Positions 36,582-57,198 of a DNA stretch of 64,000 bases are shown here, in pieces (the first letter of the stretch is position 1; each line of letters starts with the position of its first letter). Source of the DNA: an uncultured Leptospirales bacterium (GTDB taxonomy: Bacteria > Spirochaetota > UBA4802 > UBA5550); contig CAYTNW010000002.1 in NCBI GenBank assembly GCA_964439325.1, forward strand, positions 31,821 to 95,820. The letters are read 5' to 3'. The position numbers and the translations under genes were made by a program. The notes under the pieces are model-generated. The model saw nothing but the letters and a program-made list of their open reading frames with translations. It was not told the DNA's origin and did not search any database.

Positions 36582-36683
36582 GATGTGATACATCGATCAC
36601 GGACATCCATTATATGTTAAACTAAATATAGAGATATAGATTTCAGGATACAATATATTGATAGTGGGGAGAACTAAGGGCAT

Positions 36684-36823
36684 CCTGCATCAGGACGTCC
36701 TGTCCGTCAGACGTCTCACCATTTTCGAGGTAAATCAGCTTTAAAAAAACCTCGAAAATGTGAGGATTCGTGGATTTACTTCACGAAACCGCTTTTAAAC
36801 GCGCCACGGATGGACTTTTTCAG
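36684..36823. repeat. ~140-nt structured intergenic repeat, inverted relative to 23640-23777
   Basis: catcaggacgtcctg...ctcaccattttcgagg-loop-cctcgaaaatgtgagg...cacgaaaccg...ccacggatggactttttcag. Confidence 0.6.
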
Positions 36824-36837
36824 GATATTGCTCAATA

Positions 36838-37359
36838 TCAGATAAGGTCATCTTCCAGAAGATTTTTCACAAGTTCGCTTTTAATATCGTCAAGAACATC
36901 ATCCGGGATATCGTCCGGGCGGTCATATTCCGCACAAAGATCCATAAGTATTTCAAGGGAGTTGATCAGCAGACTGTAGTAGTACCAGTCTCTCATCAGC
37001 TCTGCTGCGAACAGGACCTGCCGGTCAGTTAGTTCGTTCCATGCGACGCAGAGAAAATGTTTGCAGGTGCCGGTGAAGAAAGATTCGAATCCGCATCCCG
37101 TATGGTCGTCATTATATGTGAGACAGCAGACAATCCCCGGCTCATCATCAGTTATTCCGACGTTTCCGCACTGCATCCCCTCTTTTACGAGTTTAGGTTC
37201 ACTGGATTGCTCCGGATGTTTCAGTTTGCGGCGTGAATTTGATTCATTCCCCCTGCCGATAAATATATCCTCTATCTGTTCCGGAGAAACTGTATAGTTA
37301 TGGCTTCCGCAGCAGAATGAACAGGAGGCGCCGTACCCGGGACGGCAGCGGTTTATCAT
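36838..37359 (-). CDS. cysteine-rich hypothetical protein with acidic C-terminus
   Basis: 173 aa. CRPGYGASCSFCCGSH...GIVCCLTYNDDHTGCGFESFFTGTCKHFLC, then a D/E-rich tail. Only loosely reminiscent of CxxCxxCC (YkgJ-type) proteins. Confidence 0.5.
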   Translation of the reverse strand: MINRCRPGYGASCSFCCGSHNYTVSPEQIEDIFIGRGNESNSRRKLKHPEQSSEPKLVKEGMQCGNVGITDDEPGIVCCLTYNDDHTGCGFESFFTGTCKHFLCVAWNELTDRQVLFAAELMRDWYYYSLLINSLEILMDLCAEYDRPDDIPDDVLDDIKSELVKNLLEDDLI

Positions 37360-37818
37360 TTTATCGGTGTTCGTATATCTCTCCTCATAGATCAGTTATG
37401 CAGACCGGTAACGGTGCAGCTGATAGTTGGACCGGAGTACGGAAAACTGTCAATAGCAAAAAATCTTTTTGCAGTCCAGTATCACGAATGGTGTTTAATG
37501 CTGGCTGCCTGCATTAAACCTGTCGAAAAGTGCAGTTTGACTGCGCTCACTGACCACGGAGCCGAAACATGGTATAGTATTAAATCAGGTGTAGACGTCT
37601 ATATTTGATTTTACATATCTCTCCGGCGGCTGTTATGACAAATCCGTTAAAATAGAGGTGTATTAATAGTTGACAGCAATTCTTATTTGTACAAGAATAC
37701 TATTAAACTTTGGATAAGATAGTCCTGATTTTAAAGTTTTCCTGAATAAGAGAGGCTGTTAATAAATCTGCACCAGTGATAGATCAGATTATAAAATAAA
37801 AATGAAACCGGGTATATT

Positions 37819-39885
37819 ATGAAATTAAAAACAGTAATACAGGTGGTGTTATTAGCCGCGGCGGTTGCCATAACAGCATGCGGAGGCGACAGCAAGAAAA
37901 AGGTAAGTAGCCAGCCCTTTATAACAGTATGGGATACAACATTGACCGGAACAGGAACAACGTTATCCAACCAGCTAAAGCTGCCCCTTGATGCTTCCGG
38001 AACATATGATTTTTACGTTAAATGGGGGGATGGAAAAACAGATCATATAACTTCATTCGCCCAGACCGAGATCACTCATACATATACAACCGGAGGGATA
38101 TACAATGTATCGATAGACGGGACAATAGAGGGATTCGGGTTTATATCTGCAAGCTCCGGGGACAATATTAAACTGACAGATGTCAAAAACTGGAATAATG
38201 TCAAACTGCATAACAACGGGCATCAGTTTGCCGGAGCGGCCAACTTAACCGGATTCAGCGCCGCAGATGAATTAGACCTGAGCAATATCACCAACATGAG
38301 CGGTATGTTTGAGAATGCGGAACTGTTCAATCAGGATATAAGTTCGTGGGATGTCAGTAACGTAACCGATATGAACGGAATGTTTGAAAATGCATTTGCG
38401 TTCAATCAGGATATCGGGGCATGGAATGTAGGGAATGTTACAGATATGAATTCGATGTTTGCATATGCATCTTCATTTAATCAGGATATCAGCGGATGGA
38501 TAGTGAATAAGGTTACAGATATGAGTTCGATGTTCGACAATGCGTTATCGTTTAATCAGCAGATCGGATCGTGGGATGTGGGCAATGTTGCAAATATGCG
38601 CAGTATGTTTAAAGGGGCTTCGTCTTTCAACGGGGATATAAGCGGATGGAATGTCGCCAAAGTAACTGATATGAGCTCAATGTTTGAAGATGCACAGGCT
38701 TTCAACCAGAACATATCATCATGGAATGTAAGCAGTGTAACAAATATGAATACAATGTTTTACGGAGCATCTGTGTTTAACCAGGATATCAATTATAACA
38801 GTGTTACAGGATCATGGAATGTAAGCAAGGTTACGGATATGAGTTATATGTTCGCCAATGCCATTGCTTTCAACGGGAATATATCCTTATGGAATGTAGG
38901 CAGCGTAACTGATATGAGTTACATGTTCGGTATGGCATCTGCATTCGATCAGGATATCAGTTCATGGAATGTCGCTAATGTAACAAACATGAACGGTATG
39001 TTTGCTTATACATCGGCGTTTAGCAGGGATCTAAGCTCATGGGATGTCTCTAATGTGACAAATATGAGCAGCATGTTTGAAAATGCATCATTCAATCAGA
39101 AACTCGAGTGGGGAAACAGGGTAAGCAAAGTTAAGGATATGAATTCGATGTTTAAAAACGCATCTGCATTCAACCAGGACATAGGTTTATGGAATGTAAG
39201 TGGTGTTACGAATATGAACAGTATGTTTAACGGCGCTTCAGCATTCAATCAGAATATAGGATCATGGAATGTGAGCAGTGTAACGGATATGAACAGTATG
39301 TTCTACAGTGCGACTGTATTCAATCAGGATCTGCATTCATGGGATGTAAGCAAGGTTAAAGATATGAGTTCAATGTTTACCCTGGCAGAGGCATTCAACG
39401 GCAATATAGGATCATGGGTCGTAAGCAGTGTGACAACAATGAGTTATATGTTTTCCTATGCATCGTCATTCAACCAGGCACTCAACTGGGGCAATAGTGT
39501 CAGCAGTGTAACTGATATGAGATTTATGTTTTCTAACGCGACTGATTTCGACGGAGACATCAGTTCCTGGAATGTAAGCAGTGTAACAATGATGAACAGC
39601 ATGTTTCTTGGAGCTGCAGCGTTTAACCAGAATATCGGATTGTGGGATGTGAGCAATGTCGGTGATATGGGGTGTATGTTTAAAGGCGCTTCTGCATTCA
39701 ATCAGGATATAAGTTCATGGAACGTAAGCAAGGTCACGGAGATGAGCAGTATGTTTGAAAACGCAGCTGCGTTTGTGCAGGATCTGCTGTCCTGGGGAGA
39801 TCATATCAGCAGCAGTACTACCTATATGAGTAATATGTTTACCGGCAGCGGAGTTACCACGACGCCGACCTGGTATCCTTATTGA
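37819..39885 (+). CDS. BspA-type / DUF285 repeat surface lipoprotein
   Basis: MKLKTVIQVVLLAAAVAITACGG lipobox, then more than 20 tandem ~25-aa units of the form F-x-x-A-x-x-FNQDIxSWNVSxVTxMxxMF. Confidence 0.85.
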   Translation: MKLKTVIQVVLLAAAVAITACGGDSKKKVSSQPFITVWDTTLTGTGTTLSNQLKLPLDASGTYDFYVKWGDGKTDHITSFAQTEITHTYTTGGIYNVSIDGTIEGFGFISASSGDNIKLTDVKNWNNVKLHNNGHQFAGAANLTGFSAADELDLSNITNMSGMFENAELFNQDISSWDVSNVTDMNGMFENAFAFNQDIGAWNVGNVTDMNSMFAYASSFNQDISGWIVNKVTDMSSMFDNALSFNQQIGSWDVGNVANMRSMFKGASSFNGDISGWNVAKVTDMSSMFEDAQAFNQNISSWNVSSVTNMNTMFYGASVFNQDINYNSVTGSWNVSKVTDMSYMFANAIAFNGNISLWNVGSVTDMSYMFGMASAFDQDISSWNVANVTNMNGMFAYTSAFSRDLSSWDVSNVTNMSSMFENASFNQKLEWGNRVSKVKDMNSMFKNASAFNQDIGLWNVSGVTNMNSMFNGASAFNQNIGSWNVSSVTDMNSMFYSATVFNQDLHSWDVSKVKDMSSMFTLAEAFNGNIGSWVVSSVTTMSYMFSYASSFNQALNWGNSVSSVTDMRFMFSNATDFDGDISSWNVSSVTMMNSMFLGAAAFNQNIGLWDVSNVGDMGCMFKGASAFNQDISSWNVSKVTEMSSMFENAAAFVQDLLSWGDHISSSTTYMSNMFTGSGVTTTPTWYPY
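38221..39800 (+). repeat. coding tandem array of ~75-78-nt DUF285 units
   Basis: Recurrent ...ttcaatcaggatat(a/c)(a/g)g(t/c)tcatggaatgtaagcag(t/c)gt(a/t)ac(a/g)gatatga... along the gene. Confidence 0.8.
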
Positions 39886-39916
39886 TACATGTAAAAAATA
39901 AAAGATTTATATAACT

Positions 39917-39966
39917 GAAAAAACCTGTCATGCAGATGACTTTATCTCTCTGACAGGTTTTTTTTA
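39917..39966 (+). terminator. rho-independent terminator
   Basis: gaaaaaacctgtca-...-tgacaggttttttttatttc. Confidence 0.8.
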
Positions 39967-40114
39967 TTTCTATATAACTTCAGTTGTCAATACTGTATTT
40001 TTCTTGCAATAATCAAACCTGTTAATCTACAATACCTCTATACTGAAATAGAGCATTTCCCCTGCAGTTTTGAACTGTTGGAGTATGTTTACAAAATAGA
40101 AGGCAGAAAAAAAT

Positions 40115-40837
40115 ATGGCAGGCTGGGTTTACGACGAGTACAAATATTGCGGTGTCGACTATTCAGATCTGAAACAGGCTGAAGAGTACGATAATCAGCA
40201 CCGGAAGTTCAGGAATTATGAAAAAGAATTCGATGCGATGATTGAGTTCCTGGCGCCGGATAACAGTGAAAGTATGTCGATGATCGATCTCGGCTGCGGG
40301 ACCGGTGCGACGGCGGTCTATGCCGCGAAAAAGTTTAAAAAGGTGTCCGGTGTCGACGTATCTGACGTTATGATAAACCAGGCAAAGATAAAGGCCGAAA
40401 AAGAGGGTCTTTCAAACATAGAGTTTATCCAGGCCGGATTTTTAACCTACTGTCATCAGAGTGAGCCGGCCGACCTGATAATAACAAGGGCGGCGTTTCA
40501 CCATCTCCCCGACTTCTGGAAACAGGTTGCACTGCTGAAGATGAACAGTATGCTGAGAACCGGCGGTATATTATACATCTTTGATGTCGTGTTTGATTTT
40601 GATCCGGCAGAATACATAACAAAAATCGATGCATGGGTATCGGACTTTGAACAGAAGGCCGGTATAAAATTTAAAGAGGAAGTTGAAACTCATATAAGGG
40701 ATGAGCACAGCACTTTCCGCTGGATACTGGACGGTATGATAAACAAAGCCGGATTTAAAATTGAAAAAAGCAGAACAACAGACGGTCTGTTAATGGAATA
40801 TCACTGCGTTAAAACCGAAGATATACATATACGATAA
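40115..40837 (+). CDS. class I SAM-dependent methyltransferase
   Basis: Motif I MIDLGCGTGATAVY, plus post-I and motif II-like segments. Confidence 0.8.
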   Translation: MAGWVYDEYKYCGVDYSDLKQAEEYDNQHRKFRNYEKEFDAMIEFLAPDNSESMSMIDLGCGTGATAVYAAKKFKKVSGVDVSDVMINQAKIKAEKEGLSNIEFIQAGFLTYCHQSEPADLIITRAAFHHLPDFWKQVALLKMNSMLRTGGILYIFDVVFDFDPAEYITKIDAWVSDFEQKAGIKFKEEVETHIRDEHSTFRWILDGMINKAGFKIEKSRTTDGLLMEYHCVKTEDIHIR

Positions 40838-40856
40838 ACTGTTAGAGGGATAAAAA

Positions 40857-41774
40857 ATGAATGCAGACGGTTCTTACCTGAAAACACCTGACATTTCCAT
40901 AAAGAAGAGCCACTGCACCGGATGCGGCATGTGTGAAAAGGTCTGTCCTGTTCGTATATTTAAAGTCACGAACAAAAAGGCCGAAGTAGTCCGCAGCCGT
41001 GAAGAGTGCTGTCTGTGCGGCCAGTGCGTCGCGGGGTGTACGAAGAGGGCTGTTTCTCACAGCGGATTTAATCATTCGCATTTCAGAAAAGTCTCTCATG
41101 TTCCTATCTATACCGAAAATACTTTCAACCTCCTTTCACAGCGCCGGTCGGTGAGAAATTACAGGGAGAATACTCCGCCCCGTGAACAGATTGAAAAACT
41201 TATAGAGATTGCCGGTTATGCGCCGGGAAGCCCTCACCACAGGATCGGCTGGGTCAGGAATTTCAGTGTCGTTTACGGTCATGAAAACATGAAGATCGTA
41301 CAGGATATGACAGCGGACTATCTGAAAAAGATGCGAAAGCTGATAAAAAATCCCCTTGTACGGATGTTTGCACCGTTTGATGGTTCGCTTGAGGCAGCAT
41401 ATACAGTCCTTCCCGATATAGAGATGAGACTGGATGAATATAAACAGGGGAGGGATGCGATTGTCTATAATGCGCCTGTGGCGGTCTTTGCTTACGCCCC
41501 TCAGAATTCGTCGATGCCTCAGACTGACTGTGACGCCGCTGTTTCATACATTCAGCTTTATGCATATTCGCAGGGGCTGGGAACATGCTGGAACGGCCTG
41601 ATACAGATGGCCGCGGCTGGTGAGCATATGAGGAATTTTTCCAAACTGAAAAAATTCCTCAAAATACCGAAAGGCCATAAATGCTATGCCGCGATCACGC
41701 TCGGGTATCCCTCTGTAAAGCTGCACAGCATACCGGAGCGTGAAGTGAATATTACATGGATTGAAGAAAATTAA
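40857..41774 (+). CDS. 4Fe-4S ferredoxin domain fused to nitroreductase-family domain
   Basis: CTGCGMCEKVCP and CCLCGQCVAGC cluster motifs, followed by a nitroreductase-like core (RRSVRNYRE...). Confidence 0.8.
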   Translation: MNADGSYLKTPDISIKKSHCTGCGMCEKVCPVRIFKVTNKKAEVVRSREECCLCGQCVAGCTKRAVSHSGFNHSHFRKVSHVPIYTENTFNLLSQRRSVRNYRENTPPREQIEKLIEIAGYAPGSPHHRIGWVRNFSVVYGHENMKIVQDMTADYLKKMRKLIKNPLVRMFAPFDGSLEAAYTVLPDIEMRLDEYKQGRDAIVYNAPVAVFAYAPQNSSMPQTDCDAAVSYIQLYAYSQGLGTCWNGLIQMAAAGEHMRNFSKLKKFLKIPKGHKCYAAITLGYPSVKLHSIPEREVNITWIEEN

Positions 41775-42820
41775 TCCGCAAGGTTGTTCCTGTATTTTAC
41801 AGGCGAAATGTCTGTCTCTTTTTTAAAAGCCCTGTAGAAAGATGAATTCGAATTAAAACCGACCTGGAAACAGATGCCCAGAGCAGTTGCAGTTTTATCA
41901 ATTGAAAATATTTTTTTTGCCTCCTCTATCCTGTAAAAATTTATAAAATCATAAAAGTTTTTTTTATAATAAACGTTAAGGATTTCAGAAAGCTGATGAG
42001 GAGTTATGCCTACATGGGTCGCAAGGTCTTTCAGGGTTAAATCGCTCTGGAGGAATAATTTTTCTCCTATTAATTTCGACTCAATATCCATCCGGACCTT
42101 TTCAATGTTCAGTTTGTGTATTTTTGATTTTGCGTATTGAGCCTTTTCAGCCTCTTCCCGCAGCAGGATAAATACCTCGGGGTATCGCATTGTAATAATA
42201 TAAAAAAGTATAATCATAATCATTAAAAGATAATTATCATTAACGCTGGCAGGTGAAAATGCCTGAAAGATGCTGATTATTGCGAACACTGATAAAAAAA
42301 TCATAATTTTCAGAATAGTGGTTCTGTTTTTATCATTAGTCGAAAATTTTCTTAAAAAGTTGAAATTGTGAATAATGAAAACATATAAAATTATTGAAAA
42401 AGTATATAAAGTAAATGAAACAATTTTACTGACAGAGTAATACTTTTGAGCAGACAGAAGATTTGTGACATTTAAAACCAGCATCGTAATCAGGCCCGGT
42501 ATAAATAATAACAGTATCCTCCCTCTCAGTACAAAATCTTTATGGAAAATGCTCTTCATCAGAAAGTATAATAAAACCGCTGTTAGTGAATATGCGGTTT
42601 TAAAAACAATATCCAGTGCTCTTGATAAAACCGGAGAGTTCAGTATGGGAAAAAAGTAATCTGCGGTATCGCAGAAAGACCATATGAATATCGAGATAAA
42701 TGAGAAGGCATAGTAGTAGTTTGATTTATTTTTATTTCTGATCGCCAGCTGGCCCATGGCAAGCACTAATGCAAGCAGAGATGTCAATAGATTGAAAGAG
42801 TGTTGGATACAATCAGTCAT
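41771..42820 (-). CDS. AraC-family transcriptional regulator with N-terminal multi-TM membrane domain
   Basis: ~230 aa of TM helices, then a C-terminal HTH_18-like region (LTLKDLATHVGITPHQLSEILN...GFNSNSSFYRAFKKETDISPVKYR). Confidence 0.8.
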   Translation of the reverse strand: MTDCIQHSFNLLTSLLALVLAMGQLAIRNKNKSNYYYAFSFISIFIWSFCDTADYFFPILNSPVLSRALDIVFKTAYSLTAVLLYFLMKSIFHKDFVLRGRILLLFIPGLITMLVLNVTNLLSAQKYYSVSKIVSFTLYTFSIILYVFIIHNFNFLRKFSTNDKNRTTILKIMIFLSVFAIISIFQAFSPASVNDNYLLMIMIILFYIITMRYPEVFILLREEAEKAQYAKSKIHKLNIEKVRMDIESKLIGEKLFLQSDLTLKDLATHVGITPHQLSEILNVYYKKNFYDFINFYRIEEAKKIFSIDKTATALGICFQVGFNSNSSFYRAFKKETDISPVKYRNNLAD

Positions 42821-42962
42821 TATATACCAGTAGATCTAATTTAATATGCTAACCGGTGTATCGGTTTTTCATCAACAAATCATTTGTTTACCAATACTGA
42901 ATTTTTAAAAAACTAAAATATCAATACTAAAAAGTCAAACAATACTTTTTTGTCTTTAACCG

Positions 42963-43801
42963 GCTTTTGTCCCATTCCGCTTTGCAATTGAATTATTCTC
43001 ATTTTTTATTAAGCAGCCTGTCTATTTTCTTCAAACACTTATTTACCAAAGCTTTCAATATTTATTAATAGTGAGTCTATGTGATCATGACCGTTTAGTT
43101 TTCGGAAGTTTTTTTCACTTTCAAAAATTCCAGTACATGCCCATCGAATAGCCATATTGGAATTATACAATTCCTTTACCCTTCTGGTAATATTTCGTAT
43201 ACCGCCATTCAGGCTCACAATTGGATTAGTGGTGCTGAGCCTTCTCATACTCCAAGTGCCGTTTTATTGCCTTTTTTTATCTATGCCAAGAACTACAGGT
43301 ACTGTCGTTTTTGCATAGACTATCCCGTCTATCATAATAAAGTGATACGATTCTTTAATCGTTCTGAATTCAAGTTTCAAGTTGTTCTTGAGTCTTTATA
43401 ATAATTATAGCAGGTTGTTGATTCTGTTTCCTTCTCTTTACTGTCCTTAATATTTCTAATACTTGAATGACTTACAGGGATTTTCTGGCCACCAAGTATT
43501 ACCGATGTTTCTTTTGAACTCCACGGATAAATTTCCTGTTATCAATATGTTTATATCTTTCTCTGCATATTGTTGTTATTTTACTCTCAATAATTTCATG
43601 ATATCTATTCATAGCGAAATAACTTTTTCAATAAGGGATTTATGGACCTCATCATTAATCTCTTTTTCTGATAATGCTGTAATTCCTTCTTGCTTTTTTT
43701 TTCCCTCTTTTTTAACTTTCATAGCGGCATCTCCCGGTGCATTATGAAATAATGCACCGGGAGATGCCGCTCAATTGACAACACCATTTGGGGCAAAATC
43801 T
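42963..43801 (-). mobile_element. decayed IS256-family insertion sequence (internal deletion, frameshifts)
   Basis: Imperfect terminal inverted repeats: gcttttgtcccattccgctttgcaattgaat at the left, and on the right (reverse complement) agattttgccccaaatggtgttgtcaattgag. Transposase-like pieces lie on the minus strand. Confidence 0.65.
43039..43722 (-). pseudogene. IS256-family (Mutator-type) transposase pseudogene
   Basis: Fragments in different frames: MKVKKEGKKKQEGITALSEKEINDEVHKSL..., ...YHEIIESKIT..RERYKHIDNRKFIR..., ...ILGGQKIPV..., ...IMIDGIVYAKTTVPVVLGIDKK..., and the tracked ORF 43039-43248 (STTNPIVSLNGGIRNITRRVK...FRKLNGH). Confidence 0.6.
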
Positions 43802-43921
43802 AAGGAAACTCGAGAAATTTTTGATGGTAGTTTGCGACGGTTACGCCGTCATGTTGGTTTCCTGGAAAGACAACAATCCCGGCCCAGGTGCATAACTTAT
43901 GGAAGAGACAACGGAGGCATT

Positions 43922-46339
43922 ATGAAGAGATTGTTCGTCGTTACGATTATATTGTGTCTGTTCTCGTTCGCCGGATGCGGCCTTGACGGCTGCAGCGGGG
44001 AAAATCCGTCCGCTGTGAAAGAGGAAACTACGACCGTCACGGCAACGGGCACGGTGAACCTGCCCGCAGGATCATCGTTTACCATGAATGATGTGAAAGT
44101 CCACGGCATCCTGGGGGAGAGTTCTGTCCAGGCGGACGGGACATTCACCGTGCAGGAACCTTCCACAGGCCTGGCTCTGGTGACGCTCAACGATCCTTCC
44201 GGTAATACGATGCTCATGGGCTATGTGGATGCGGCAGACCCACAGATGGGCAGGATCAGCCCGCTGAGCACGGCAACGGTCCTCATGTTCTTCGGTATCG
44301 GCGGATACACCTTGCCTGCCGAGAACTGGAAAGAAACGCTGGCCCTCATCGAGGCCGAGCAGAAGGTAAAGGACCTGGCGGCAATCATAGAGCAGCGACT
44401 TGCTGTTGACAGCGCTGCTCTCCAGAACAGCGACCAGGCCATCATGGATGCCGTTACAGCGGCCTGCGCAGCACTCAACGCTTCGGGCAACGCCGGTGGC
44501 AGCGGAACCGATGAAGCTGCCACATCGAAGGCCGTTCTTTCAAAGGCAACTGATTCAGAGTTTACGGTCGCCGTGTCCAAGGCAGCATCGAGCAAGGACG
44601 GAGCCACAACACCTGTCGAAATCATGATACCGGACTCGAATCTGTCCGGCGTGCAGGTGAGCGCGAGCCCGAACAGCGACGCTATATTCCTGACCAACAG
44701 CTACCGCCGGCACTGCTGGTACTGGGTCTACTACACGGGTTACCAGGACAAGTCCGGCACGGACCACCTGCTCTCGACCGCCCTGTGGGAGCTCAAGGAC
44801 AACGGCTACCTCAAGTCCACCAACGCTCTGGGCGGCGTAGTCGGCACCTCCATCGACTTTGCCTGGGGCAAGATCCCATACATCCCGGTCAAGGTGGGAC
44901 CCATAACCCTGGACACCATGCCCGCCGACGCGCAGAAGGCCTACTACAAGGTGGTGCTCGTGGGCGGCACGACCTTTATTAACTACCTGCCCCCGGCATG
45001 GGTTACCGAGAACGTCAACAGCGCTGAATACATCAAGATGCAGAACCTCATGGGCCAGATCACCATAGTGAAGGACTACCTCGTGCCCACGCTCTTCGCC
45101 TTCATCCCGGTGGGCAAGCTCAATGGATTCAACGGCAAGCAGCTCGGCGACTTTGCCGCCGGCATGATCGGCATCCTTGTCAAGGGCGGCGTCAATGTGA
45201 CGCTCAACGCCGTGGACGAGAAATACAGCGACATCTGCTGGACGATACTCAAGGCCGTGCTGTCTGAGGGCTCGATCCGGAACGGGGTCTGCGAGTACGT
45301 GGGCACGTGGCTCCTGGGCGCCGTGATGACGGAGCAGGCCGTGAAGGACGTCGGCACCACGGCCAAGTTCCTGGCCGAAGCCATCAAGTCATGCGACAAA
45401 GTGCTCCTCGGCATCGACCTCGGCGCCGTCAGCAAGGATATCGCCATGTCAGACGGGTACGAATGCTTCGACGTCATCGCAGTGAAGCCCGTTGTTCACA
45501 TTGAGCCGGGTACGGCAACAATAACTGCGGGCAGCGAAAGAACCTTCACCGCCATCAAGGGAACAGTGACGGGTGACACGTTCGAGTATCACTGGTCAAT
45601 TACCGGGCAGGCTGGGAGCCTCCGGAAGTCAGATGGTTCTGTTCTTTCCATGACCCAGACCACCAGTGAAGCGTCCATAGTCTATCAGGCGTTGTCCTCT
45701 GCCGAAGAGGGAGCCAGAGATACCCTTTCTGTGGATGTATACCGCAAACAGATCACCGAGTCGGGTGTTGTCTTACAGCTGATAGGATCTGACCAGATAG
45801 TCATAACGATTAGCAAGACGACCGGATTTCAACTCTTATACCGGGAACAGGTGCTTGCATATGACCTGGTCAATGACGGAGACATCTGCCTGTTTAATAT
45901 CGGGTACTTTATCCTGAAGAAGATACCGGGAGCTGCAACCTATGAAATTGCCCTCGACGATCACGGCTTCCCATACATTCCGCCAGAAAATGCTATTCAG
46001 AACGGCCTTAACGTCCCCTCTATGAGAATTGGGAGCCACACCTTCCTGCTAAGCCCCGGCGGCTGGGATGATTATGGCAGTGGCTACGGCAATGGGATCG
46101 TCTACCTCATTGACAAGGACAATCAAGGCTCGTTCGGTTACTACCTCGATCTCGTACCCATTGCGGACGACGAGGTTCTCCTGGTTGTCGGATGTAATGG
46201 AACGACCTGGTCTTCGGCATGGGAAAATGCAGAACAGAAGCTGCGGGAGAGATATGCAAACGAGAACTGCCAGGGGTATTGGGATACCTGGCTCAACTCT
46301 GCCAGATACTGGACTGTTACCTGCACGGGGCTGCAGTAA
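43922..46339 (+). CDS. orphan lipoprotein (805 aa) encoded in a G+C-rich insert
   Basis: GGAGG 6 nt upstream of ATG 43922. MKRLFVVTIILCLFSFAGCG lipobox. Strong G/C third-position bias. One Ig-like segment (VKPVVHIEPGTATITAGSERTFTAIKG). No family recognised. Confidence 0.7.
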   Translation: MKRLFVVTIILCLFSFAGCGLDGCSGENPSAVKEETTTVTATGTVNLPAGSSFTMNDVKVHGILGESSVQADGTFTVQEPSTGLALVTLNDPSGNTMLMGYVDAADPQMGRISPLSTATVLMFFGIGGYTLPAENWKETLALIEAEQKVKDLAAIIEQRLAVDSAALQNSDQAIMDAVTAACAALNASGNAGGSGTDEAATSKAVLSKATDSEFTVAVSKAASSKDGATTPVEIMIPDSNLSGVQVSASPNSDAIFLTNSYRRHCWYWVYYTGYQDKSGTDHLLSTALWELKDNGYLKSTNALGGVVGTSIDFAWGKIPYIPVKVGPITLDTMPADAQKAYYKVVLVGGTTFINYLPPAWVTENVNSAEYIKMQNLMGQITIVKDYLVPTLFAFIPVGKLNGFNGKQLGDFAAGMIGILVKGGVNVTLNAVDEKYSDICWTILKAVLSEGSIRNGVCEYVGTWLLGAVMTEQAVKDVGTTAKFLAEAIKSCDKVLLGIDLGAVSKDIAMSDGYECFDVIAVKPVVHIEPGTATITAGSERTFTAIKGTVTGDTFEYHWSITGQAGSLRKSDGSVLSMTQTTSEASIVYQALSSAEEGARDTLSVDVYRKQITESGVVLQLIGSDQIVITISKTTGFQLLYREQVLAYDLVNDGDICLFNIGYFILKKIPGAATYEIALDDHGFPYIPPENAIQNGLNVPSMRIGSHTFLLSPGGWDDYGSGYGNGIVYLIDKDNQGSFGYYLDLVPIADDEVLLVVGCNGTTWSSAWENAEQKLRERYANENCQGYWDTWLNSARYWTVTCTGLQ

Positions 46340-46779
46340 GCCGGAGGTATCTAAATCGGAATATGATGAGTGAAAAGGAGTCAGAGAGAATTTGTCAGGA
46401 CATGTGATGTCAGATCCTCTTCAACCGGCTACAGTAGTGTCTTCACCGCCATTGGCGGGTCGTCGCGGCGGATGGGCTTTTGCATCTCGTAGGCCGTGTC
46501 GAGGTTCTTGATAATACTAAGGTAGTAGCCGGGTACTGCGATGTCTGCGCCGGAGAAGGTGATGATCTTCTCTTTCGGGAAAAAATTTATTTTAAACAGG
46601 TCGTATTGAATGTTTTTTATCAAGGAGGAATACTGTATTGTTCTACCGATAATTTTCATTATGATACTTTAACAACAGATTATTGGGTCTAAACTCTCTG
46701 TTTGTTATTGAAGATTCCTGGATAGCAAAGACTTTAAATTACTTCAGTTACCAGAGTGTGGAGTGAAATGCAGTGGACG

Positions 46780-47035
46780 TACAGGGATTTTCTGGCCACC
46801 AAGTATTAACGATGTTTCTTTTGAACTCCAACGGATAAATTTCCTGTTATTAATATATTTATATCTATCTCGGTATGTTGCCGTTATTTCACTCTCAATA
46901 ATTTCATGATATGACTCAATCCATAGCGAAATAATTTTTTCACTAAGAGAATTATGTACCTCTTCATTAATTCCCTTTTCTGATAATGCACCGGGAGATG
47001 CCACTCAATTTATAACACCATCTGGGACAAAATCT
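46780..47035 (-). mobile_element. 5' fragment of a second IS256-family copy (same orientation as 42963-43801)
   Basis: ~85% identical by eye to 43473-43801. Encodes ...LSEKGINEEVHNSLSEKIISLWIESYHEIIESEITATYRDRYKYINNRKFIRWSSKETSLILGGQKIPV. Truncated at ~46780 and lacks ~80 nt around the start codon. Confidence 0.6.
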
Positions 47036-47197
47036 TTAAACGGCTTTTCTGTATTTCATAATTTATCGAACAGGCTCGAATGAATCACAGGATATAGAAA
47101 TAAAATAATAAAAAAGTTTCTCAATATATATACTGGGTAGATTAACTGAAAATGCCTGTTTATCATATGGCAAGTTTTTTAATAAACAGGAGGCTTT

Positions 47198-48559
47198 ATG
47201 AAAAGGATATATTTAACTCTATGCCTGATTCTCACATTGATATTAACCGGGTGCTCGTCTTCTCAGGATCCGGAAAAGGTTCCCGGTAAGGTTACAGGGA
47301 AATATGTATCAATTGAAAAGACGGATACGCATTACAATGTTGTTATTGACTACACCACCGGAGCAACAAGATCAGAGGTGGGGAAGGAGTACGGTGAGCT
47401 GATCAAACAGATTTTACCGGATTTTGAAACTGTTGTTGATAGCTGTCTTGCAGATTTTAACAATATCGGAAATCTTGAACAGCAGTATTCCCAGCTCATT
47501 ACTCCTCAGGATAATAACTATGCGGCAATGATTGCAAACGTCGCAAAGATCAAACCGCAGATTCCCGTGGAATACAGGGATGAGATCGAAGGCCTTGCTT
47601 CAGCAATGTCAGGAGGAACAACGGATACTGTCTCAGATAATAAACTTTCAGTGGACGAGGTGTATATATTGAGCATATTACCTGATGTAATCCGTGCGTG
47701 TCAATGCAACGGTGTTGGAGTCTGGGGGAGCCTGTCCTCCACCGGTAATAATATGGTAGGGCGTACGCTCGATTTTTACAGCGGCAGTAAAAGACAATTT
47801 GCTCAATGCAATGCGGTAACGACGATAAAGAACAATGATTCATCGATATGTCTTGTGGGATTTCTGGGGCAGTTCTGCGCCGTCACGGTCTTTAATAAAG
47901 CAGGGGTCTTTGCGGGAATTCTTGATTCACCGGAACTTGTTTCAAACACGGGCAATTTTAACAACAGCCCGAGGTCTTATGTGATGGACCTCAGATATGC
48001 AGTTGAACTGGCGGGTTATACATCTCTTGAAGATGTTGCCGGTTATATGACAGATAACAGCAGGAACTATGTCTTCAATCATAATATCCTTCTTGCCGAC
48101 AAGACAGATACGCAGGTCGTGGAGAATGATCTGCTGCATAACAGGGCTTTGAGAAACTCTACCTCTCAATTGAGGAGCGGTGTCAGCTGGAATTTTACCG
48201 AGGCAATATGTGTGGTAAATTCATTCGTACTCGATGGAAATTTCGATAATCATTCGGGTAATACAAACTCAAAAAGGTGGGCCTCTTTCACCTCTCAGCT
48301 TACCGGTGCAGTAGCAGGCGGGAAGATCACTCCGGATGCTTTGAGATCAGTAATGTCATATCATGATTTATCCGATGCTGATGCTTCAATTTACCGCGGG
48401 CCGGAATATGAAGCTGCCAGTATATGGAATACCGATCTGTGCAGTATTCAACAGGTATTTTATGTACCTGCAACAGGAGAACTGAAAGCTTATTTCCTCC
48501 CTGTATCGGGACCGCTGGAAAATCCTGTATTTAAAGATATCACTGTAAATTTTAACTGA
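47198..48559 (+). CDS. lipoprotein, possibly Ntn-hydrolase (C45 / choloylglycine-hydrolase-like) fold
   Basis: MKRIYLTLCLILTLILTGC lipobox. RACQCNGVGVWGSLSSTGNNMVGRTLDFYSG resembles the nucleophile-Cys ... GRNxDW region of the family. The functional call is weak. Confidence 0.55.
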   Translation: MKRIYLTLCLILTLILTGCSSSQDPEKVPGKVTGKYVSIEKTDTHYNVVIDYTTGATRSEVGKEYGELIKQILPDFETVVDSCLADFNNIGNLEQQYSQLITPQDNNYAAMIANVAKIKPQIPVEYRDEIEGLASAMSGGTTDTVSDNKLSVDEVYILSILPDVIRACQCNGVGVWGSLSSTGNNMVGRTLDFYSGSKRQFAQCNAVTTIKNNDSSICLVGFLGQFCAVTVFNKAGVFAGILDSPELVSNTGNFNNSPRSYVMDLRYAVELAGYTSLEDVAGYMTDNSRNYVFNHNILLADKTDTQVVENDLLHNRALRNSTSQLRSGVSWNFTEAICVVNSFVLDGNFDNHSGNTNSKRWASFTSQLTGAVAGGKITPDALRSVMSYHDLSDADASIYRGPEYEAASIWNTDLCSIQQVFYVPATGELKAYFLPVSGPLENPVFKDITVNFN

Positions 48560-48571
48560 AAACATGATTTG

Positions 48572-48608
48572 AAAAACAGATAAAACATATTGTTTTATCT
48601 GTTTTTTT
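48572..48608 (+). terminator. rho-independent terminator
   Basis: acagataaaaca-tat-tgttttatctgt (12-bp perfect stem) followed by a T-run. Confidence 0.8.
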
Positions 48609-48740
48609 ATTGTAAAACCGGATATCCTTAAACTTTATAGACTTAAGCCTGGAACTAAAAAATTACCATTGTCTCACACCGATTTTGAATGACTGGTTCC
48701 GGTTTTAAATTTTTGAAAAAAGAAAGATTATATCCGGGGG

Positions 48741-49238
48741 ATGACTATGACTATTGTATTTGAACCGATGTCTGACGGGCATGAAAATGATGTGATGAGT
48801 ATCTTTAATTATTATATTGAAAACAGTTTTTACGCTTATCCGGAGAAAAAAATGCCTGACCAGTTTTTTGCCCGTTTTCTCGAGATTGGAAAAACATATC
48901 CCGCTTTTGTTATTAAAAGTGACGGCATCATTGCGGGCTTCTGCCTGTTGAGGCCTTATAATCCTTTTCCTGTGTTCAGGGAGACAGCAGAGGTAAGCTA
49001 TTTTATTAAACAGGAGTTTACCGGTAAGGGGATAGGATCAGTTGCATTGAAAAAACTTGAAGAATCGGCACAAAATATCGGTATAAAAAGACTTCTCGCG
49101 GATATCTCTTCAGAAAATCAGCACAGCATTAACTTCCATCAGAAAAACGGTTTTGTCAGATGCGGTGTGTTTAAAAATGCCGGGAGGAAATTTGGAAAAT
49201 ATTTTGATGTAGTCTGGATGGAGAAAGAACTGTTATGA
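48741..49238 (+). CDS. GNAT-family N-acetyltransferase (phosphinothricin-acetyltransferase-like)
   Basis: 165 aa. QEFTGKGIGSVALKKLEESA acetyl-CoA-binding motif. Stop overlaps the next ATG (ATGA). Confidence 0.8.
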   Translation: MTMTIVFEPMSDGHENDVMSIFNYYIENSFYAYPEKKMPDQFFARFLEIGKTYPAFVIKSDGIIAGFCLLRPYNPFPVFRETAEVSYFIKQEFTGKGIGSVALKKLEESAQNIGIKRLLADISSENQHSINFHQKNGFVRCGVFKNAGRKFGKYFDVVWMEKELL

Positions 49239-49669
49239 AGTTTTATGCGGGAGATTGTATAATTAAATACGGTTTTGAGAATATGGATTTTCTGAAAGTA
49301 ACCGGGATGCTTGCTGATGCTTTCTGGAGCAGGGATATAAAAATTGATGAAGTAAAAAAAGGCGCTTTGAATTCAGCTCTGACAGTCGGCGTTTTTTTTA
49401 ATGAAACACAGATTGCCTATTCGCGCGTGATTTCAGACAAAACGCGGTTTGCCTACATCCTTGATGTTTACGTAGATGAAGAATTCAGAAAGAAAGGGGT
49501 GGGACAGCTGATGATTAACAGTATACTTGGTCATGACGATCTGAAGGATGTTTACCAGTGGTTGCTGATAACTGGAGATGCCCACAAAGTTTACAGTAAA
49601 TCAGGTTTCAAACCGCTCGGTATGCCAGAAAACTGGATGGAGATTCGAAAGCAGAGACCTGAACGGTGA
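49235..49669 (+). CDS. GNAT-family N-acetyltransferase
   Basis: 144 aa. VDEEFRKKGVGQLMINSIL motif A. Confidence 0.75.
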   Translation: MKFYAGDCIIKYGFENMDFLKVTGMLADAFWSRDIKIDEVKKGALNSALTVGVFFNETQIAYSRVISDKTRFAYILDVYVDEEFRKKGVGQLMINSILGHDDLKDVYQWLLITGDAHKVYSKSGFKPLGMPENWMEIRKQRPER

Positions 49670-49697
49670 TTTCAGTCCTATACAGATTATTTAATTG

Positions 49698-50177
49698 TTA
49701 TAGTATATGATGATGTGCCGGGATAAGATCGTCAACGGACTCACCAGGTTTGCGGATAGCTATTCTGCATGTGGTTTCACCGGGCTGTGCCTGTGAACTG
49801 AGAACTATAAACTGACCCCCGATCTTTTGTACCATGGTCCGGTCGAACTCCATAACCTTGTAGCATGCACGCACGTCGCCAGTACCTCGCAGAGGGCACC
49901 ATGTACGGGTCTTGGCGTAAAATGTATTTCCGGTTACGGATAAAACCTCCTGCATATTCTGATATGGGAACATCCGTCTCCATTCATTTCCGATCTCGCT
50001 GATTTCAGATTTATATTCCGCTTTTCTGATCAGAAGCACGAATCGGGCATTCAGCCGCATGAACATCCCGGTAAATTTATCCCATCCAAGACGGGCGGAG
50101 ATGGCTGCAATCATCAGATTGATCTTAAAAAAAATATAGTAAAGGGGATTTATTAGCGCATTCAGCAATTTGAACAT
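49698..50177 (-). CDS. hypothetical protein
   Basis: 159-aa ORF with an N-terminal hydrophobic helix. No confident family. Confidence 0.45.
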   Translation of the reverse strand: MFKLLNALINPLYYIFFKINLMIAAISARLGWDKFTGMFMRLNARFVLLIRKAEYKSEISEIGNEWRRMFPYQNMQEVLSVTGNTFYAKTRTWCPLRGTGDVRACYKVMEFDRTMVQKIGGQFIVLSSQAQPGETTCRIAIRKPGESVDDLIPAHHHIL

Positions 50178-50373
50178 GTTTCCACCGCCGGAGACAGGAT
50201 TTTTAGTTATATCTTCATAATAATTAACACTTTAAAGGCTCATCAGTCAAATTTATGTTATAAATGGGAGAGCTTTCATCATGATTGCCGGATAAAAACC
50301 GGGCAATCATGATGAAAAAATTTTATTGCTGCAGCTGTAAGCAGTTGTTTTGTTTTAGAGACGGGGGATTTAG

Positions 50374-51438
50374 CTATCTCCCCTTTGTGAGTTTATATCC
50401 CTTGATTTTAACCGACGGATCATCGTTCGGATTATAATTGTCGTCGTCGGAGTATATTATATTTCCGCTCTCATTGACCCACCTGTTCTTCCACGATGCC
50501 GTGTCGCGTTCAACTTTGCCGGTGAACGGATTTTTATAGTCGTTCTGATCAGTAAGGGTCAGGTACATGTCGCGCTGGATCGCCTCCTGGGTTTTCCGTC
50601 TACCCTCGGAAATCTCCCTGTCAATACGCTGAATGTCCTGCTGTGTCATCGATATAGTTTTGTTCCTCTGCATCTGTCCGCGTATTTCGCCTGCTACCCA
50701 TTTCATGTTCCAGTCGCCGGAGTTCTGTATAACCGAAAGGGTGCTTTCCCACTTCGGGAACTCTCCCTCAGGAACCCGTGCCAGCAGCGTTGTCCTGTTC
50801 TTCCAGAGGCCGCCGCCACCCGCGCCGAAATCCTCAAGGATTGTGATTACGCGCTCTGAGTAGCGTTTACCTTTCTCCTCGTAGCTGAGTGAAACAAGAG
50901 CTGCGTAGTAGGACATGTTGGTGAAGTAGTTCATCTCTTTAGGTACCGTTGACTGGAAAATCGATGCCAGGGCAGGGAGGTTTTTCACATCCGTTACCCT
51001 CACATTACGCGCCCCGGGATGAGCATAGGGGACCACAACCTCCGTAACGAAACGCTGCGGGTTGCGTTTGGCGCGTACCAGCGCGTTATTGAAGATCGCT
51101 CCCTCCGGATTGCCCCATGCCTGGGAGGTGTCGATACACATCATTTCAGGCAGCCAGCGTATCATAACCGTACCTGCTTTATCACTTTTTACGGAGAGAT
51201 CAAATTTGCATTCAACCATATTCATCGCGCCTCCGAAACGTTCGTCAAGAATCCGGATTGCTCCCCCCTCCAGGAGCCAACCTTTTGGAACAAGGAGTGT
51301 AAAGGCCCTTTCTCTCGGTTCGGCTCTTCTTTCAAAAACGACGGTTGATTTCTGATCGTGGGGCTTTCCGCCGCAGAGGGTCAGAAAAATAATAGAAGCT
51401 GATAAAACCATCCTGAAACGTTTTGATTTAATGATCAT
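50374..51438 (-). CDS. lipoprotein of unknown function
   Basis: 354 aa. SASIIFLTLCGG lipobox. Followed by a 15-bp hairpin at 50277-50314. Confidence 0.6.
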   Translation of the reverse strand: MIIKSKRFRMVLSASIIFLTLCGGKPHDQKSTVVFERRAEPRERAFTLLVPKGWLLEGGAIRILDERFGGAMNMVECKFDLSVKSDKAGTVMIRWLPEMMCIDTSQAWGNPEGAIFNNALVRAKRNPQRFVTEVVVPYAHPGARNVRVTDVKNLPALASIFQSTVPKEMNYFTNMSYYAALVSLSYEEKGKRYSERVITILEDFGAGGGGLWKNRTTLLARVPEGEFPKWESTLSVIQNSGDWNMKWVAGEIRGQMQRNKTISMTQQDIQRIDREISEGRRKTQEAIQRDMYLTLTDQNDYKNPFTGKVERDTASWKNRWVNESGNIIYSDDDNYNPNDDPSVKIKGYKLTKGR

Positions 51439-51672
51439 AATATCCTCCGTAAATAAGTGCGGAATTAATAACTATTAACGAATTGATCAGTATGTTTTGT
51501 CCTTCGGCTTTCTTCGACGGCGTTCAGCACAGTCCGCCCGGGGAATATTGTAAACGACGGTTGTCTGCAAAGAGTCAGTCGAAATGATCGGAGTCAAAAC
51601 CTGATTTTAAAAAAGCTAATTAATTCGTGTAATACTTTAATTGTGCGAAAATATCAATAAAATAAAACAATG

Positions 51673-52869
51673 TCAATCAGTTTTACCATATGCAAAGCTG
51701 ACAAACATTATCACTATAATCAGCGCTAGCATAAACCCTGACAAAAATCCGGCTTTGTCAGAGTACAGGGTTATAACTGTTCCTGCTATAAGAGGCCCGG
51801 ATGAATGGCCGACGTCCATGATTGATGACAGAGCTCCCATTGACGCTCCGAGCTGGTCTCTCTTTGCTATATCGGCAACGTAGGCGCTGGTTGCAACCGT
51901 TGAGAATGACATCGCAAGACCGAAGGTCATGCTCACTGCCAGAACAGGGATGAACGATGTTACAAACGGAATAACAGCGACTGAAAGGCCGAGAACGAAA
52001 AGGCCGGCAGCAATCTGGATTCTCTTGTCAATCCTGTCCGCAAGACGTCCGAATGCAGGTTTGGTAAGAGCTATGGACAAGATCTGAAGTGAAAATATCA
52101 ATCCTACTATTTCAGGCCCGTAACCTGATCTTTTTAAATAACCGGGTGTGAAGGTTTCGAATATTCCGAATGAGAAATAAGTTGAAAGATCAACAAGAGC
52201 GGTCGCCAGTATAAGCCTGTTCCGGGCGATATACTTTACGCTTGCAAAAAAATCTTTCACAGAAACACCTTTCTTGACTGGAGATTCTCCTGTTCTGATT
52301 AAAAGGGCCCCTGTAACAACAGGTATGCTCATGATGAACGCTGATACGTATACCGCACGGCAGCTCGCAAGTTCACCCCTGTAAGCAAAAAATGCTATAA
52401 TTGCACCGCCCGCAAGCGGAGCGAGTGTCCTGCCGATTAGAGTGGCGGATGAATAGATGCCGAGTTTTTCACCCCTGTCTGTGTCATAAGATTCAGCGAT
52501 AATTGTGGATGCAAGAGGTCCAAGAATCGCTGTTGCCATTCCGTGAAAGAACCTGACAGGTATAAGCCAGAATGGATTGAACACAAGAAGATAGAGAAGG
52601 GGCGCGCTCATAAATATCAGTGATGAGACGATAAGCATTTTCTTTTTTCCGATTTTATCTGCAAGGAAACCTACAGGGAATGAAAAGAGAATTCCCGCCA
52701 CAGGAGAGATCGAGGATATCAGTCCCAGCAATTGATCATCGGCGCCGAGAGATTTAACCAGGAAAGGGAGTACGGGATTTTTCGATATCGTAGAAGTGAA
52801 TATCGCCAGAAAACCGATCATTGATATGTAGAATATTATTCCCCTGTTTCTGGCCGACGGTGTGTTCAT
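51673..52869 (-). CDS. MFS transporter
   Basis: 398 aa, 12 TM pattern. GFLADKIGKKKM loop motif. Confidence 0.85.
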   Translation of the reverse strand: MNTPSARNRGIIFYISMIGFLAIFTSTISKNPVLPFLVKSLGADDQLLGLISSISPVAGILFSFPVGFLADKIGKKKMLIVSSLIFMSAPLLYLLVFNPFWLIPVRFFHGMATAILGPLASTIIAESYDTDRGEKLGIYSSATLIGRTLAPLAGGAIIAFFAYRGELASCRAVYVSAFIMSIPVVTGALLIRTGESPVKKGVSVKDFFASVKYIARNRLILATALVDLSTYFSFGIFETFTPGYLKRSGYGPEIVGLIFSLQILSIALTKPAFGRLADRIDKRIQIAAGLFVLGLSVAVIPFVTSFIPVLAVSMTFGLAMSFSTVATSAYVADIAKRDQLGASMGALSSIMDVGHSSGPLIAGTVITLYSDKAGFLSGFMLALIIVIMFVSFAYGKTD

Positions 52870-52898
52870 AACAAACTCCTGCTGATTAAAATACTATA

Positions 52899-53543
52899 TT
52901 AAATAATTGAAGTGAGCTTTCCAATACCGGACCATGCGAAATATACGGCGAATATCACAAGAAAAAATGCGCAGGTGGTAATCACACCCCGATAGAGACG
53001 GTCTGTAAGAAAATGCCTCCCTCCGGAAACTGCGGCTGATATAAATGAGTACCATGCGAGATCAGCGAGTATATGTCCGCTGAAGAAGAAAGCCACCCCT
53101 GTCATGCCGAACTGTCTGGAATAGAGAATATAGCCCATGCCGATAGTCGTCCACCAGATAATCCAGTAGGGATTCGCGAGACTCATCAGGAAACCGCTTA
53201 TAACAGGGTTGTTTCTTTCACCGGAATCGGCATCCCATGATATATGAAGTGAAGGGAGAGAACGGAACATCCCGAAAGCCATCCAGAGAAGAATTACAGA
53301 ACCGATAAGAGCACTGGCAACAAAAACTGAAGGCAGAAGGAAAAACGGAGCGAGACCGAGCATAATCGCAATCACAAGGCTGAGTTCAAGGATGGCATGG
53401 CCTGATATCATAAGCGGCCCGGCGATAAAACCGCGCTGTGAACTTTCGCTGATAGTCGCGGTCAGCAGCGGTCCTGGCATCATTGCCCCCGAAAGCGCTA
53501 TCACAAACGATGATACAAAAATTGTCAGAAACTCTGTGATCAT
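52899..53543 (-). CDS. LysE/RhtB-family amino-acid exporter
   Basis: 214 aa, 6 TM. N-terminal AMMPGPLLTATISES motif region. Confidence 0.8.
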   Translation of the reverse strand: MITEFLTIFVSSFVIALSGAMMPGPLLTATISESSQRGFIAGPLMISGHAILELSLVIAIMLGLAPFFLLPSVFVASALIGSVILLWMAFGMFRSLPSLHISWDADSGERNNPVISGFLMSLANPYWIIWWTTIGMGYILYSRQFGMTGVAFFFSGHILADLAWYSFISAAVSGGRHFLTDRLYRGVITTCAFFLVIFAVYFAWSGIGKLTSII

Positions 53544-53675
53544 GGCGGCAGTTTTTTCTCCGTTATTGTATTAACTTGCCGGTTTTACGGATTGTGTCCG
53601 ATCAGTAAAACTGAAAATTGAATTATGTTTTAGTCAATAAAAAAAGAGATTCTGTTTTGCAATTATTATCTGTTC

Positions 53676-56697: not shown

Positions 56698-56774
56698 GCA
56701 TTCAGCAGACAACGCATGTACTCAGCTATGATAAGGGAAACAGCGGTGCAATCCAGATTTTTAAGGACTGAAAG

Positions 56775-57191: not shown

Positions 57192-57198
57192 TAAAAAG

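Follow-up and report, generated by a model that had tools for sequence, protein, structure and literature searches.

The named systems closest to the locus described here are Tn4001 and other composites built from insertion sequences (IS) of the IS256 family, in which two copies of the IS lie around a passenger segment; in Tn4001 the flanking copies are in inverted orientation. Elements of this family transpose by copy-out-paste-in through circles and dimers and produce direct repeats of 8 or 9 base pairs (bp) (PMC5065196, PMC9333248). We analysed a 64,000-nucleotide (nt) stretch of contig CAYTNW010000002.1 from an uncultured Leptospirales bacterium, referred to below as the window, in which a G+C-rich segment carrying a single lipoprotein gene (the cargo) lies between two decayed IS256-family remnants, IS-A and IS-B. 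For the reading that we favour, namely that the whole unit transposed as an IS256-family composite transposon, using the left terminal inverted repeat (IRL) of IS-B and the right one (IRR) of IS-A as its outer ends, and that its IS parts decayed afterwards, we put the chances at about even.

IS-A is an 838-bp remnant on the minus strand (42963-43800), with its IRR at 42963 and its IRL at 43800, and IS-B is a 259-bp 5' fragment of a second copy, also on the minus strand (46776-47034), whose IRL tip lies at 47034 and which breaks off at 46776. In both copies the transposase is read from the minus strand, so that they share one orientation, and they bracket 2975 bp between them; the stretches 43469-43800 and 46776-47034 form direct repeats identical at 227 of 254 positions (89.4%), IS-B being without 78 nt that are present in IS-A and 95 nt relative to a complete copy of the element in the related locus L005. 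This complete copy measures 1338 bp from IRL to IRR, contains one open reading frame (ORF) of 398 amino acids (aa) and sets the tips of the element as GATTTTGTCCCA... at both ends. The tips of IS-A (GCTTTTGTCCCA and GATTTTGCCCCA) are those of the L005 copy, and the terminal inverted repeats are imperfect (IRL-A GATTTTGCCCCAAATGGTGTTGTCAATTGA, IRR-A GCTTTTGTCCCATTCCGCTTTGCAATTGA).

The closest full-length relative of the encoded transposase, a protein of 398 aa (P0016), allowed the damage to be followed piece by piece. Comparison by tblastn aligned IS-A with aa 1-40, 37-73 and 64-107 of this protein in three frames, with a stop, then with aa 171-199 and finally, across an in-frame stop, with aa 321-398. 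Missing are aa 108-170 and 200-320, about 500 bp in total; the tally is two internal deletions, at least two frameshifts and two stops. IS-B codes for aa 17-85 without a frameshift, at 80% identity, and its start codon is gone. The first-pass annotation had described the left remnant as an IS256-type element on the minus strand with imperfect ends and a frameshifted, internally deleted transposase, a description with which the comparison with P0016 and the L005 copy agrees. Its second copy on the right does lie in the same orientation, at the computed 89.4% identity in place of the roughly 85% judged by eye, and of the IS edges that it gave, 42963 stands, while 43801 and 47035 each move 1 nt inwards to the true tips at 43800 and 47034 when the complete copy is used as reference.

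Pfam gave no match on the IS remnants, and the NCBIfam model transpos_IS256 (NF033543) matched only the C-terminal motif of the remnant (E 5e-4), the direct profile matches being weak because the remnants are decayed. When the read-through of the left remnant served as query, full-length transposases of 394-398 aa carrying PF00872 (Transposase_mut) were obtained, one of them named as an IS256-family transposase and coming from a Spirochaetota metagenome-assembled genome (MAG). P0016, which carries the same domain, matches the remnants at 57-93% aa identity in their several pieces, and among transposases on plasmids it matches those annotated as IS256-family, at about 35% identity and with E as low as 1e-57. 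Homology of the transposase, the inverted repeats and the size place the elements in the IS256 family, within which they represent a divergent and apparently unnamed IS.

The sequences just outside the outermost tips are nearly the same. Directly outside the IRR tip of IS-A lies TTTAACCG (42955-42962) and directly outside the IRL tip of IS-B lies TTTAAACG (47035-47042), the two copies of a putative 8-bp target-site duplication in which 7 of 8 positions match (P about 0.002 at a fixed position with this composition). The tips that they adjoin, the IRR of IS-A (42963) and the IRL of IS-B (47034), are inverted relative to each other. The first-pass annotation had seen no duplication around the left copy, which holds for IS-A alone (TTTAACCG versus TAAGGAAA), yet the 7/8 repeat brackets the whole unit. 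The structure of a composite transposon is present here, with two copies of one IS, matched outer IRL and IRR and a flanking duplication, and because the 8-bp repeat brackets the matched outer tips, the 4072 bp from 42963 to 47034 look like one insertion; the target duplications of IS256 are direct repeats of 8 or 9 bp (PMC5065196). If these 4072 bp entered as a single insertion, the site before insertion would have read ...TTTTTTGTC, a single TTTAAMCG and then GCTTTTCTG....

In full, the repeat extends to 16 nt, TCTTTAAMCGGCTTTT, with 15 of 16 positions matching (42953-42968 versus 47033-47048), a length reached in 1 of 5000 shuffles and in none of 5000 real window pairs. It enters the IRR tip by 6 nt and the IRL tip by 2 nt, and the IRR tip of IS-A reads GCTTTT where all other tips of this IS read GATTTT. 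As deduced from these letters, the target would have resembled the junction of an IS circle, in which an IRR tip, 8 nt and an IRL tip follow one another. We know of no target preference for own-end-like sites among relatives of IS256. Such a preference has been documented for IS30 and IS911 (PMC9333248).

The segment between the two remnants differs strongly in composition from its surroundings. In windows of 300 nt, its G+C content is 0.54-0.61 at 43850-45650 and then 0.48-0.54 up to about 46550, against 0.29-0.36 in the flanking windows on both sides, the value being low again by 46600. Over 43802-46570 the G+C content is 0.558, compared with 0.424 in the rest of the window, and the other bins of 1 kilobase (kb) reach at most 0.512. 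The sole ORF that occupies the segment, the cargo gene at 43922-46339 on the plus strand, has a G+C content at third codon positions (GC3) of 0.722, the highest of all and 4.3 standard deviations (SD) above the 0.478 ± 0.057 of 41 other ORFs, with only a mild rise at first and second positions (GC1 and GC2). No other part of the window deviates as strongly in tetranucleotides (distance z = 6.4), and the G+C-normalised tetranucleotide correlation of the segment with the rest of the window is 0.39, compared with 0.83 ± 0.06 (z = -6.8). Both the G+C enrichment of 43802 to about 46570, which the first-pass annotation had judged from a few lines of sequence, and the bias towards G and C at third codon positions that it had noted are borne out by these figures, and sliding G+C and tetranucleotide statistics alike deviate strongly.

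The foreign DNA proper is about 43866-46570, that is some 2.7 kb with a G+C content of 56%, compared with 42% in the rest of the window. A spacer of 65 nt (43801-43865, G+C 0.446), which has no match in any fetched locus or elsewhere in the window, lies between the tip of IS-A and the first donor-like base, where the donor-derived 5' leader of the cargo begins (43866-43921, plus strand, with GGAGG at 43913). At the other end, high G+C runs for about 230 nt past the cargo stop codon, forming a 3' tail (46340-46570, G+C 0.515, falling to 0.30 at about 46570) that ends sharply near 46570, in the middle of a 76-aa ORF on the minus strand (46429-46659) whose composition shifts at that point. This ORF has no homologue and no match in Pfam or NCBIfam, and its part from 46429 to about 46575 on the minus strand may be the 3' stump of a truncated convergent donor gene. 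The stretch 46340-46780, sought as the downstream gene of the donor, has no match among the fetched loci, and the A+T-rich spacer of 205 nt that follows the tail (46571-46775, G+C 0.317) has none in the window, in the host relative L015 or in other loci. One 24-nt match to locus L014 (E 0.008) was judged to be due to chance.

The cargo gene is an intact open frame for a predicted lipoprotein of 805 aa, whose N-terminus (MKRLFVVTIILCLFSFAG-C) has a lipoprotein signal ending in ...LFSFAG-C. The lipoboxes of close relatives read LTAC, LTSC, LAGC and ISAC, and Cys19 is at least 90% conserved across 87 family members. No Pfam or NCBIfam family was found for the protein, Ca_tandemer and AcrIIA2 appearing at E > 0.01 as noise. 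A word-based search returned 15 relatives at up to 79% aa identity, none identical and one of them labelled Deltaproteobacteria, and an exhaustive HMMER profile search returned 974 representative clusters at E <= 1e-3, 185 of them at E <= 1e-30, clusters being counted at 50% identity. The cargo family is therefore a sizeable and undescribed one of uncharacterised surface lipoproteins of about 800 aa without a Pfam model. In larger members, dockerin, FG-GAP, PKD or beta-propeller modules are added (PF00404 among them), as is typical of extracellular proteins, and close relatives often adjoin PEP-CTERM genes. In the protein collection clustered at 90%, the 805-aa protein stands under a 49-aa representative with the name 'cytochrome c oxidase cbb3-type subunit 4', apparently an artefact of the clustering, because of which the window's own protein is missing among the homologues of the word-based search.

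The ratio of nonsynonymous to synonymous divergence (dN/dS) between the cargo and four relatives was 0.15-0.26, and the synonymous distance (dS) to the closest relative was about 0.5. A first structural model, from 16 sequences, was poor, with a predicted local distance difference test score (pLDDT) of 59, and was set aside for an AlphaFold model from 87 sequences (pLDDT 77, predicted template modelling score 0.64), in which several predicted beta-sandwich domains surround a helical domain at aa 359-508. Foldseek comparison of this model with the PDB returned only Ig-like sandwiches, and a sequence search of the PDB with the cargo returned nothing. Since the structural matches are to generic Ig-like domains only, no function can be assigned, and our best guess is that the cargo lipoprotein could be exposed at the surface and serve in binding or in a matrix-related role. 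The cargo was absent from the plasmid collection. The only RNA run, a soil metatranscriptome from 2024 (X5), contributed one contig of 151 nt, 100% identical to cargo positions 45293-45443, which could stem from transcription of a near-identical allele in another place or from carry-over among libraries, and which as a sole contig is too little for a claim of transcription in this host.

Relatives of the cargo, the nearest of them 60-79% identical in aa sequence, point to a donor from another lineage. Among 185,579 species-representative genomes only one held such relatives, a Desulfobacterota MAG labelled Desulforapulum autotrophicum with two paralogues, whose GC3 of 0.66-0.69 equals that of the neighbouring genes. 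On the contig of locus L013 (G+C 0.61, gene GC3 0.85) the homologue is 83% identical at the nucleotide level over 43866-45462, and on that of L014 (G+C 0.58) the identity to the cargo is 80%. Homology to L013 begins at 43866, 56 nt before the ATG, includes the GGAGG ribosome-binding site (RBS) and does not extend further upstream; in L013 and in locus L002 a PEP-CTERM gene, of which the C-terminus is encoded there, precedes the homologue, and this gene is missing in the window. The gene contexts of the relatives feature sigma-54 activators, PEP-CTERM and cytochrome c peroxidase. Judged from the few labelled relatives and these contexts, the donor would most likely be Desulfobacterota-like, and the donor search proposed in the first-pass annotation has led to contigs of 58-61% G+C from another lineage. 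The homologue in L002 (8539-11049), a Logan contig, has a GC3 of 0.71, compared with 0.40-0.50 in its neighbours, and the jump in G+C comes directly behind the signal peptide, about 60 nt into the gene; with no IS on this 11.6-kb contig, the pattern suggests that the core of a resident gene was replaced through recombination.

The host was assigned by sequence clustering to the Spirochaetota, the ClpC-type protein of the window falling at 90% identity or more in a cluster with a protein named from a Spirochaetota MAG. Outside the unit, its left neighbour is a gene for a membrane-anchored AraC-family regulator (41771-42820, minus strand; Pfam HTH_18 and HTH_AraC), with the lowest G+C content of all ORFs (0.335), and its right neighbour a gene for a C45-family lipoprotein (47198-48559, plus strand; NCBIfam C45_proenzyme, E 3.7e-31), for which the best homologue elsewhere, without synteny, has 53% identity. 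Among the available relatives of the host, the nearest is represented by a 72-kb contig (L015), reached through the cluster of a 354-aa neighbour, which has 72-81% nucleotide identity and is collinear with the window over 40090-41775, 48780-49669 and 50369-59577. Window positions 41776-48779, the 7.0 kb that hold the araC-type gene, the unit and the C45 gene, correspond there to 1.2 kb (14081-15269) with two unrelated small genes, GNAT and DUF4440, between a nitroreductase gene and an acetyltransferase pair. The comparison with a related genome, which the first-pass annotation had put forward as a check, thus finds the segment lacking at the syntenic locus. Since the araC-type and C45 genes are absent from L015 as well, the variable block exceeds the IS-bounded unit, and since L015 lacks the whole block and the databases hold no closer host relative, no empty site can be read.

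Variation in this part of the genome goes beyond that block, a second small replacement being seen between window positions 49670-50368 and 11070-13190 of L015 (rhodanese, DJ-1). A search through the C45 neighbour found no syntenic relative in the 185,579 species genomes or in JGI metagenomes, and a further candidate, L016, proved to be the same organism as the host. Further to the left, the window codes for a 688-aa PARCEL-repeat surface lipoprotein (37819-39885; NCBIfam TIGR02167 / NF045896), a region that is the strongest tetranucleotide outlier outside the IS unit (d = 0.033, compared with a mean of 0.019). Rfam found no family anywhere in the window.

The IS has features of its own. A perfect palindrome of 23 + 23 bp with a 3-nt loop (43723-43771, minus strand) lies in the leader of IS-A and abuts the transposase ATG. 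The complete relatives in L005 (160-235) and L006 (2660-2735) have the same two arms 17 nt further apart, and by this comparison it was a 17-nt deletion that made the palindrome in IS-A perfect. The distal arm contains a GGAG RBS and the proximal arm adjoins the IRL, and most likely the leader hairpin of this IS would sequester the RBS. In IS-B, a deletion between ATTAT microhomologies removed hairpin, RBS and start codon together. A perfect TTGACA is found in the IRL of IS-A (43775-43780), directed outward toward the cargo, 21 nt from the tip and 142 nt before the ATG, its counterparts being TTTATA in IS-B and TTTACA in L005. A hybrid promoter built on this outward TTGACA was considered and discarded, no convincing -10 lying at the right spacing, and a scan of promoters and terminators gave counts not above those of shuffles.

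Comparison of four wastewater metagenome runs (X1-X4; four samples from one study) with window positions 42966-43796 at 80% likeness revealed one contig in each, 1403-1434 nt long and, over pieces reaching from tip to tip, about 85-88% identical to IS-A. Relative to the host contig, these contigs were covered about six times as deeply in all four runs, and their flanks differ between runs, which indicates a related, complete, multi-copy IS of the same community; the constancy of the depth ratio makes it probable that this IS is in the same genome as the host. In L005 (1-130), a second IRL tip lies inverted 90 nt upstream of the first and represents either head-to-head copies or a collapsed assembly repeat. 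Because of this nested tip, a target duplication cannot be read in L005, and other copies gave no duplication length either, L006-L009 sharing one truncated insertion with no usable flank pair.

From these data we infer the following order of events for a composite transposon. An earlier host would have had two diverged, directly oriented IS copies flanking some 2.7 kb of G+C-rich DNA that had been excised from a different and G+C-richer bacterium, most likely one related to Desulfobacterota, and this DNA would have comprised a single surface-lipoprotein gene, complete and together with its own leader and RBS, without the preceding PEP-CTERM gene. An IS256-type transposase, working by copy-out-paste-in as described for IS256 (PMC9333248), would have acted on the IRL of copy B and the IRR of copy A, and the unit would have been inserted into the chromosome between the araC-type gene and the C45 lipoprotein gene with duplication of 8 bp of target. 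The transposase could have come from the unit itself or from one of the roughly six related intact copies in the same samples. Deletions and frameshifts would then have ruined the IS parts (copy B perhaps before), the cargo staying open, and the unit would by now be immobile and its gene fixed. Since neither flanking IS has a working transposase, IS-A being broken and IS-B retaining only aa 17-85, the unit is a remnant that could be mobile only with a transposase supplied in trans. The acquisition through IS followed by IS decay that had been proposed from the sequence at first sight is supported by the present analysis, and the 8-bp repeat around the unit strengthens it.

Several observations weigh against transposition as one composite unit and have to be set beside its rivals. 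The duplication is imperfect, with one mismatch, and the overlap of the repeat with the IS tips by 6 nt and 2 nt is not explained by a plain 8-bp duplication; no second copy of the unit was found elsewhere (no cargo copy exceeds 79% aa identity) and no empty site; the actual donor is unsampled, since the closest relative stands at a dS of about 0.5; and support for the junctions comes from short-read contigs only. The direct orientation of the IS copies is, moreover, also expected if a resident IS made the 8-bp duplication, a circular or cointegrated molecule of IS plus cargo joined it later through the IS, whether homologous recombination inside the IS or an intermediate in the form of an IS dimer or a cointegrate brought this about, and deletions followed. 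Such a course, the main rival, which we regard as possible if rather unlikely, predicts exactly what is seen, direct copies with a duplication around the whole unit but not around the single copies, and it can draw on the circles and tandem dimers known for IS256 (PMC9333248, citing Prudhomme et al. 2002) and on the abundance of related intact IS copies in the same samples. The two IS copies, however, are 10.6% divergent over their overlap and thus a poor substrate for homologous recombination, and the 3' part of copy B and its IRR are gone, so that the inner junction predicted next to the cargo left no remains. The G+C jump inside the L002 gene suggests that the family can also spread by recombination without IS, another point that tells against the composite transposon, and the IS copies might be bystanders, the gene having arrived by homologous or illegitimate recombination (through transformation or conjugation) and the IS having inserted later, with deletions erasing their duplications. 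The L002 homologue, as G+C-rich relative to its neighbours as the cargo is here, fits this possibility, as does the variability of the whole block from araC to C45 relative to L015, but it leaves unexplained both the near-identical sequences just outside the outermost IS tips and the shared orientation with an IRL and an IRR outermost, and we consider it improbable.

The same data bear on whether the segment is foreign at all and whether it truly belongs to this contig. An origin as an old native spirochaete gene with high G+C from a cause of its own, such as expression-linked codon bias, would be in keeping with the concentration of high G+C in the conserved protein core, here and in L002. 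A GC3 that far above 41 neighbouring ORFs, a tetranucleotide pattern that is foreign even after normalisation for G+C, high G+C extending 230 nt beyond the stop codon, absence from the locus of the relative L015 and the lack of any relative above 79% identity, with a Desulfobacterota MAG as the sole species-representative genome holding relatives, make a native gene very improbable. Still less probable, in our estimation, is an assembly chimera in which the G+C-rich gene of another community member was fused to a spirochaete contig through the IS repeat, a concern that the first-pass annotation had raised. The source is a metagenome, the related IS is multi-copy there and in two runs the contig depth over the cargo is somewhat above that of the left flank (11 versus 6.5-7). 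The region was, however, present at 97-100% of sampled words in each of the four runs, and their separately assembled contigs are identical, without differences, at the junctions 43800/43801, 46775/46776 and 47034/47035, with no alternative joints seen among them. One contig covers the whole region, others cross 43800/43801, and another runs from 43630 to beyond 48500 and joins cargo, IS-B and the host C45 gene; a Logan contig from run SRR10083294 matches window positions 36609-50550 at 100% identity. IS-A and IS-B are unique, decayed versions that share no more than 85-89% identity with one another and with the multi-copy IS, and there is no long exact repeat for an assembler to cross. Apart from these rivals, the broader proposition that the lipoprotein family has been exchanged repeatedly between phyla as a self-contained module, met here on an IS256 composite and in L002 apparently through recombination within a resident gene, and that this IS256-family element prefers targets resembling its own ends, seems to us doubtful.

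On the composite-transposon reading, the locus would be an example of how IS in an anaerobic wastewater community bring one gene from one phylum into another and afterwards decay, while the gene stays behind, fixed. The scars can still be read in the two IS ends, in the duplicated target, at the edges where the donor DNA was cut and in the microhomologies at deletions. It is an ordinary and well-preserved gene transfer by IS, in which only the extension of the flanking repeat would surprise a specialist. Knowledge of transposons is unchanged by it; its value lies in annotation and in a lead to the function of the lipoprotein family, as it flags a widespread and uncharacterised family of surface proteins whose members are apparently horizontally mobile, together with a divergent, multi-copy member of the IS256 family in the same samples.

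Compared with Tn4001, the unit has its IS copies in direct orientation, one of them reduced to 259 bp and the other riddled with deletions; its IS shows only about 35% protein identity to annotated IS256-family transposases, and its passenger is a lipoprotein gene of an uncharacterised family rather than a resistance gene. The complete L005 copy resembles IS256 of Staphylococcus and Enterococcus in its length of about 1.3-1.4 kb, in its single ORF of about 400 aa with PF00872 and in its terminal inverted repeats, which are imperfect and measure about 30 bp, whereas its sequence is very distant and it has a long leader hairpin that pairs with the RBS. In the direct arrangement of its copies, with a duplication around the whole structure, the unit is more like Tn9, which is built from IS1, and the pseudo-compound transposons and translocatable units of IS26, and one possible origin here is that a circle of IS plus cargo joined a resident IS, as in IS26 translocatable units. 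Those structures, however, belong to other IS families, IS1 and IS6, the features that define IS26 are not expected here, and the transposition chemistry is different (PMC7986276 for IS6/IS26).

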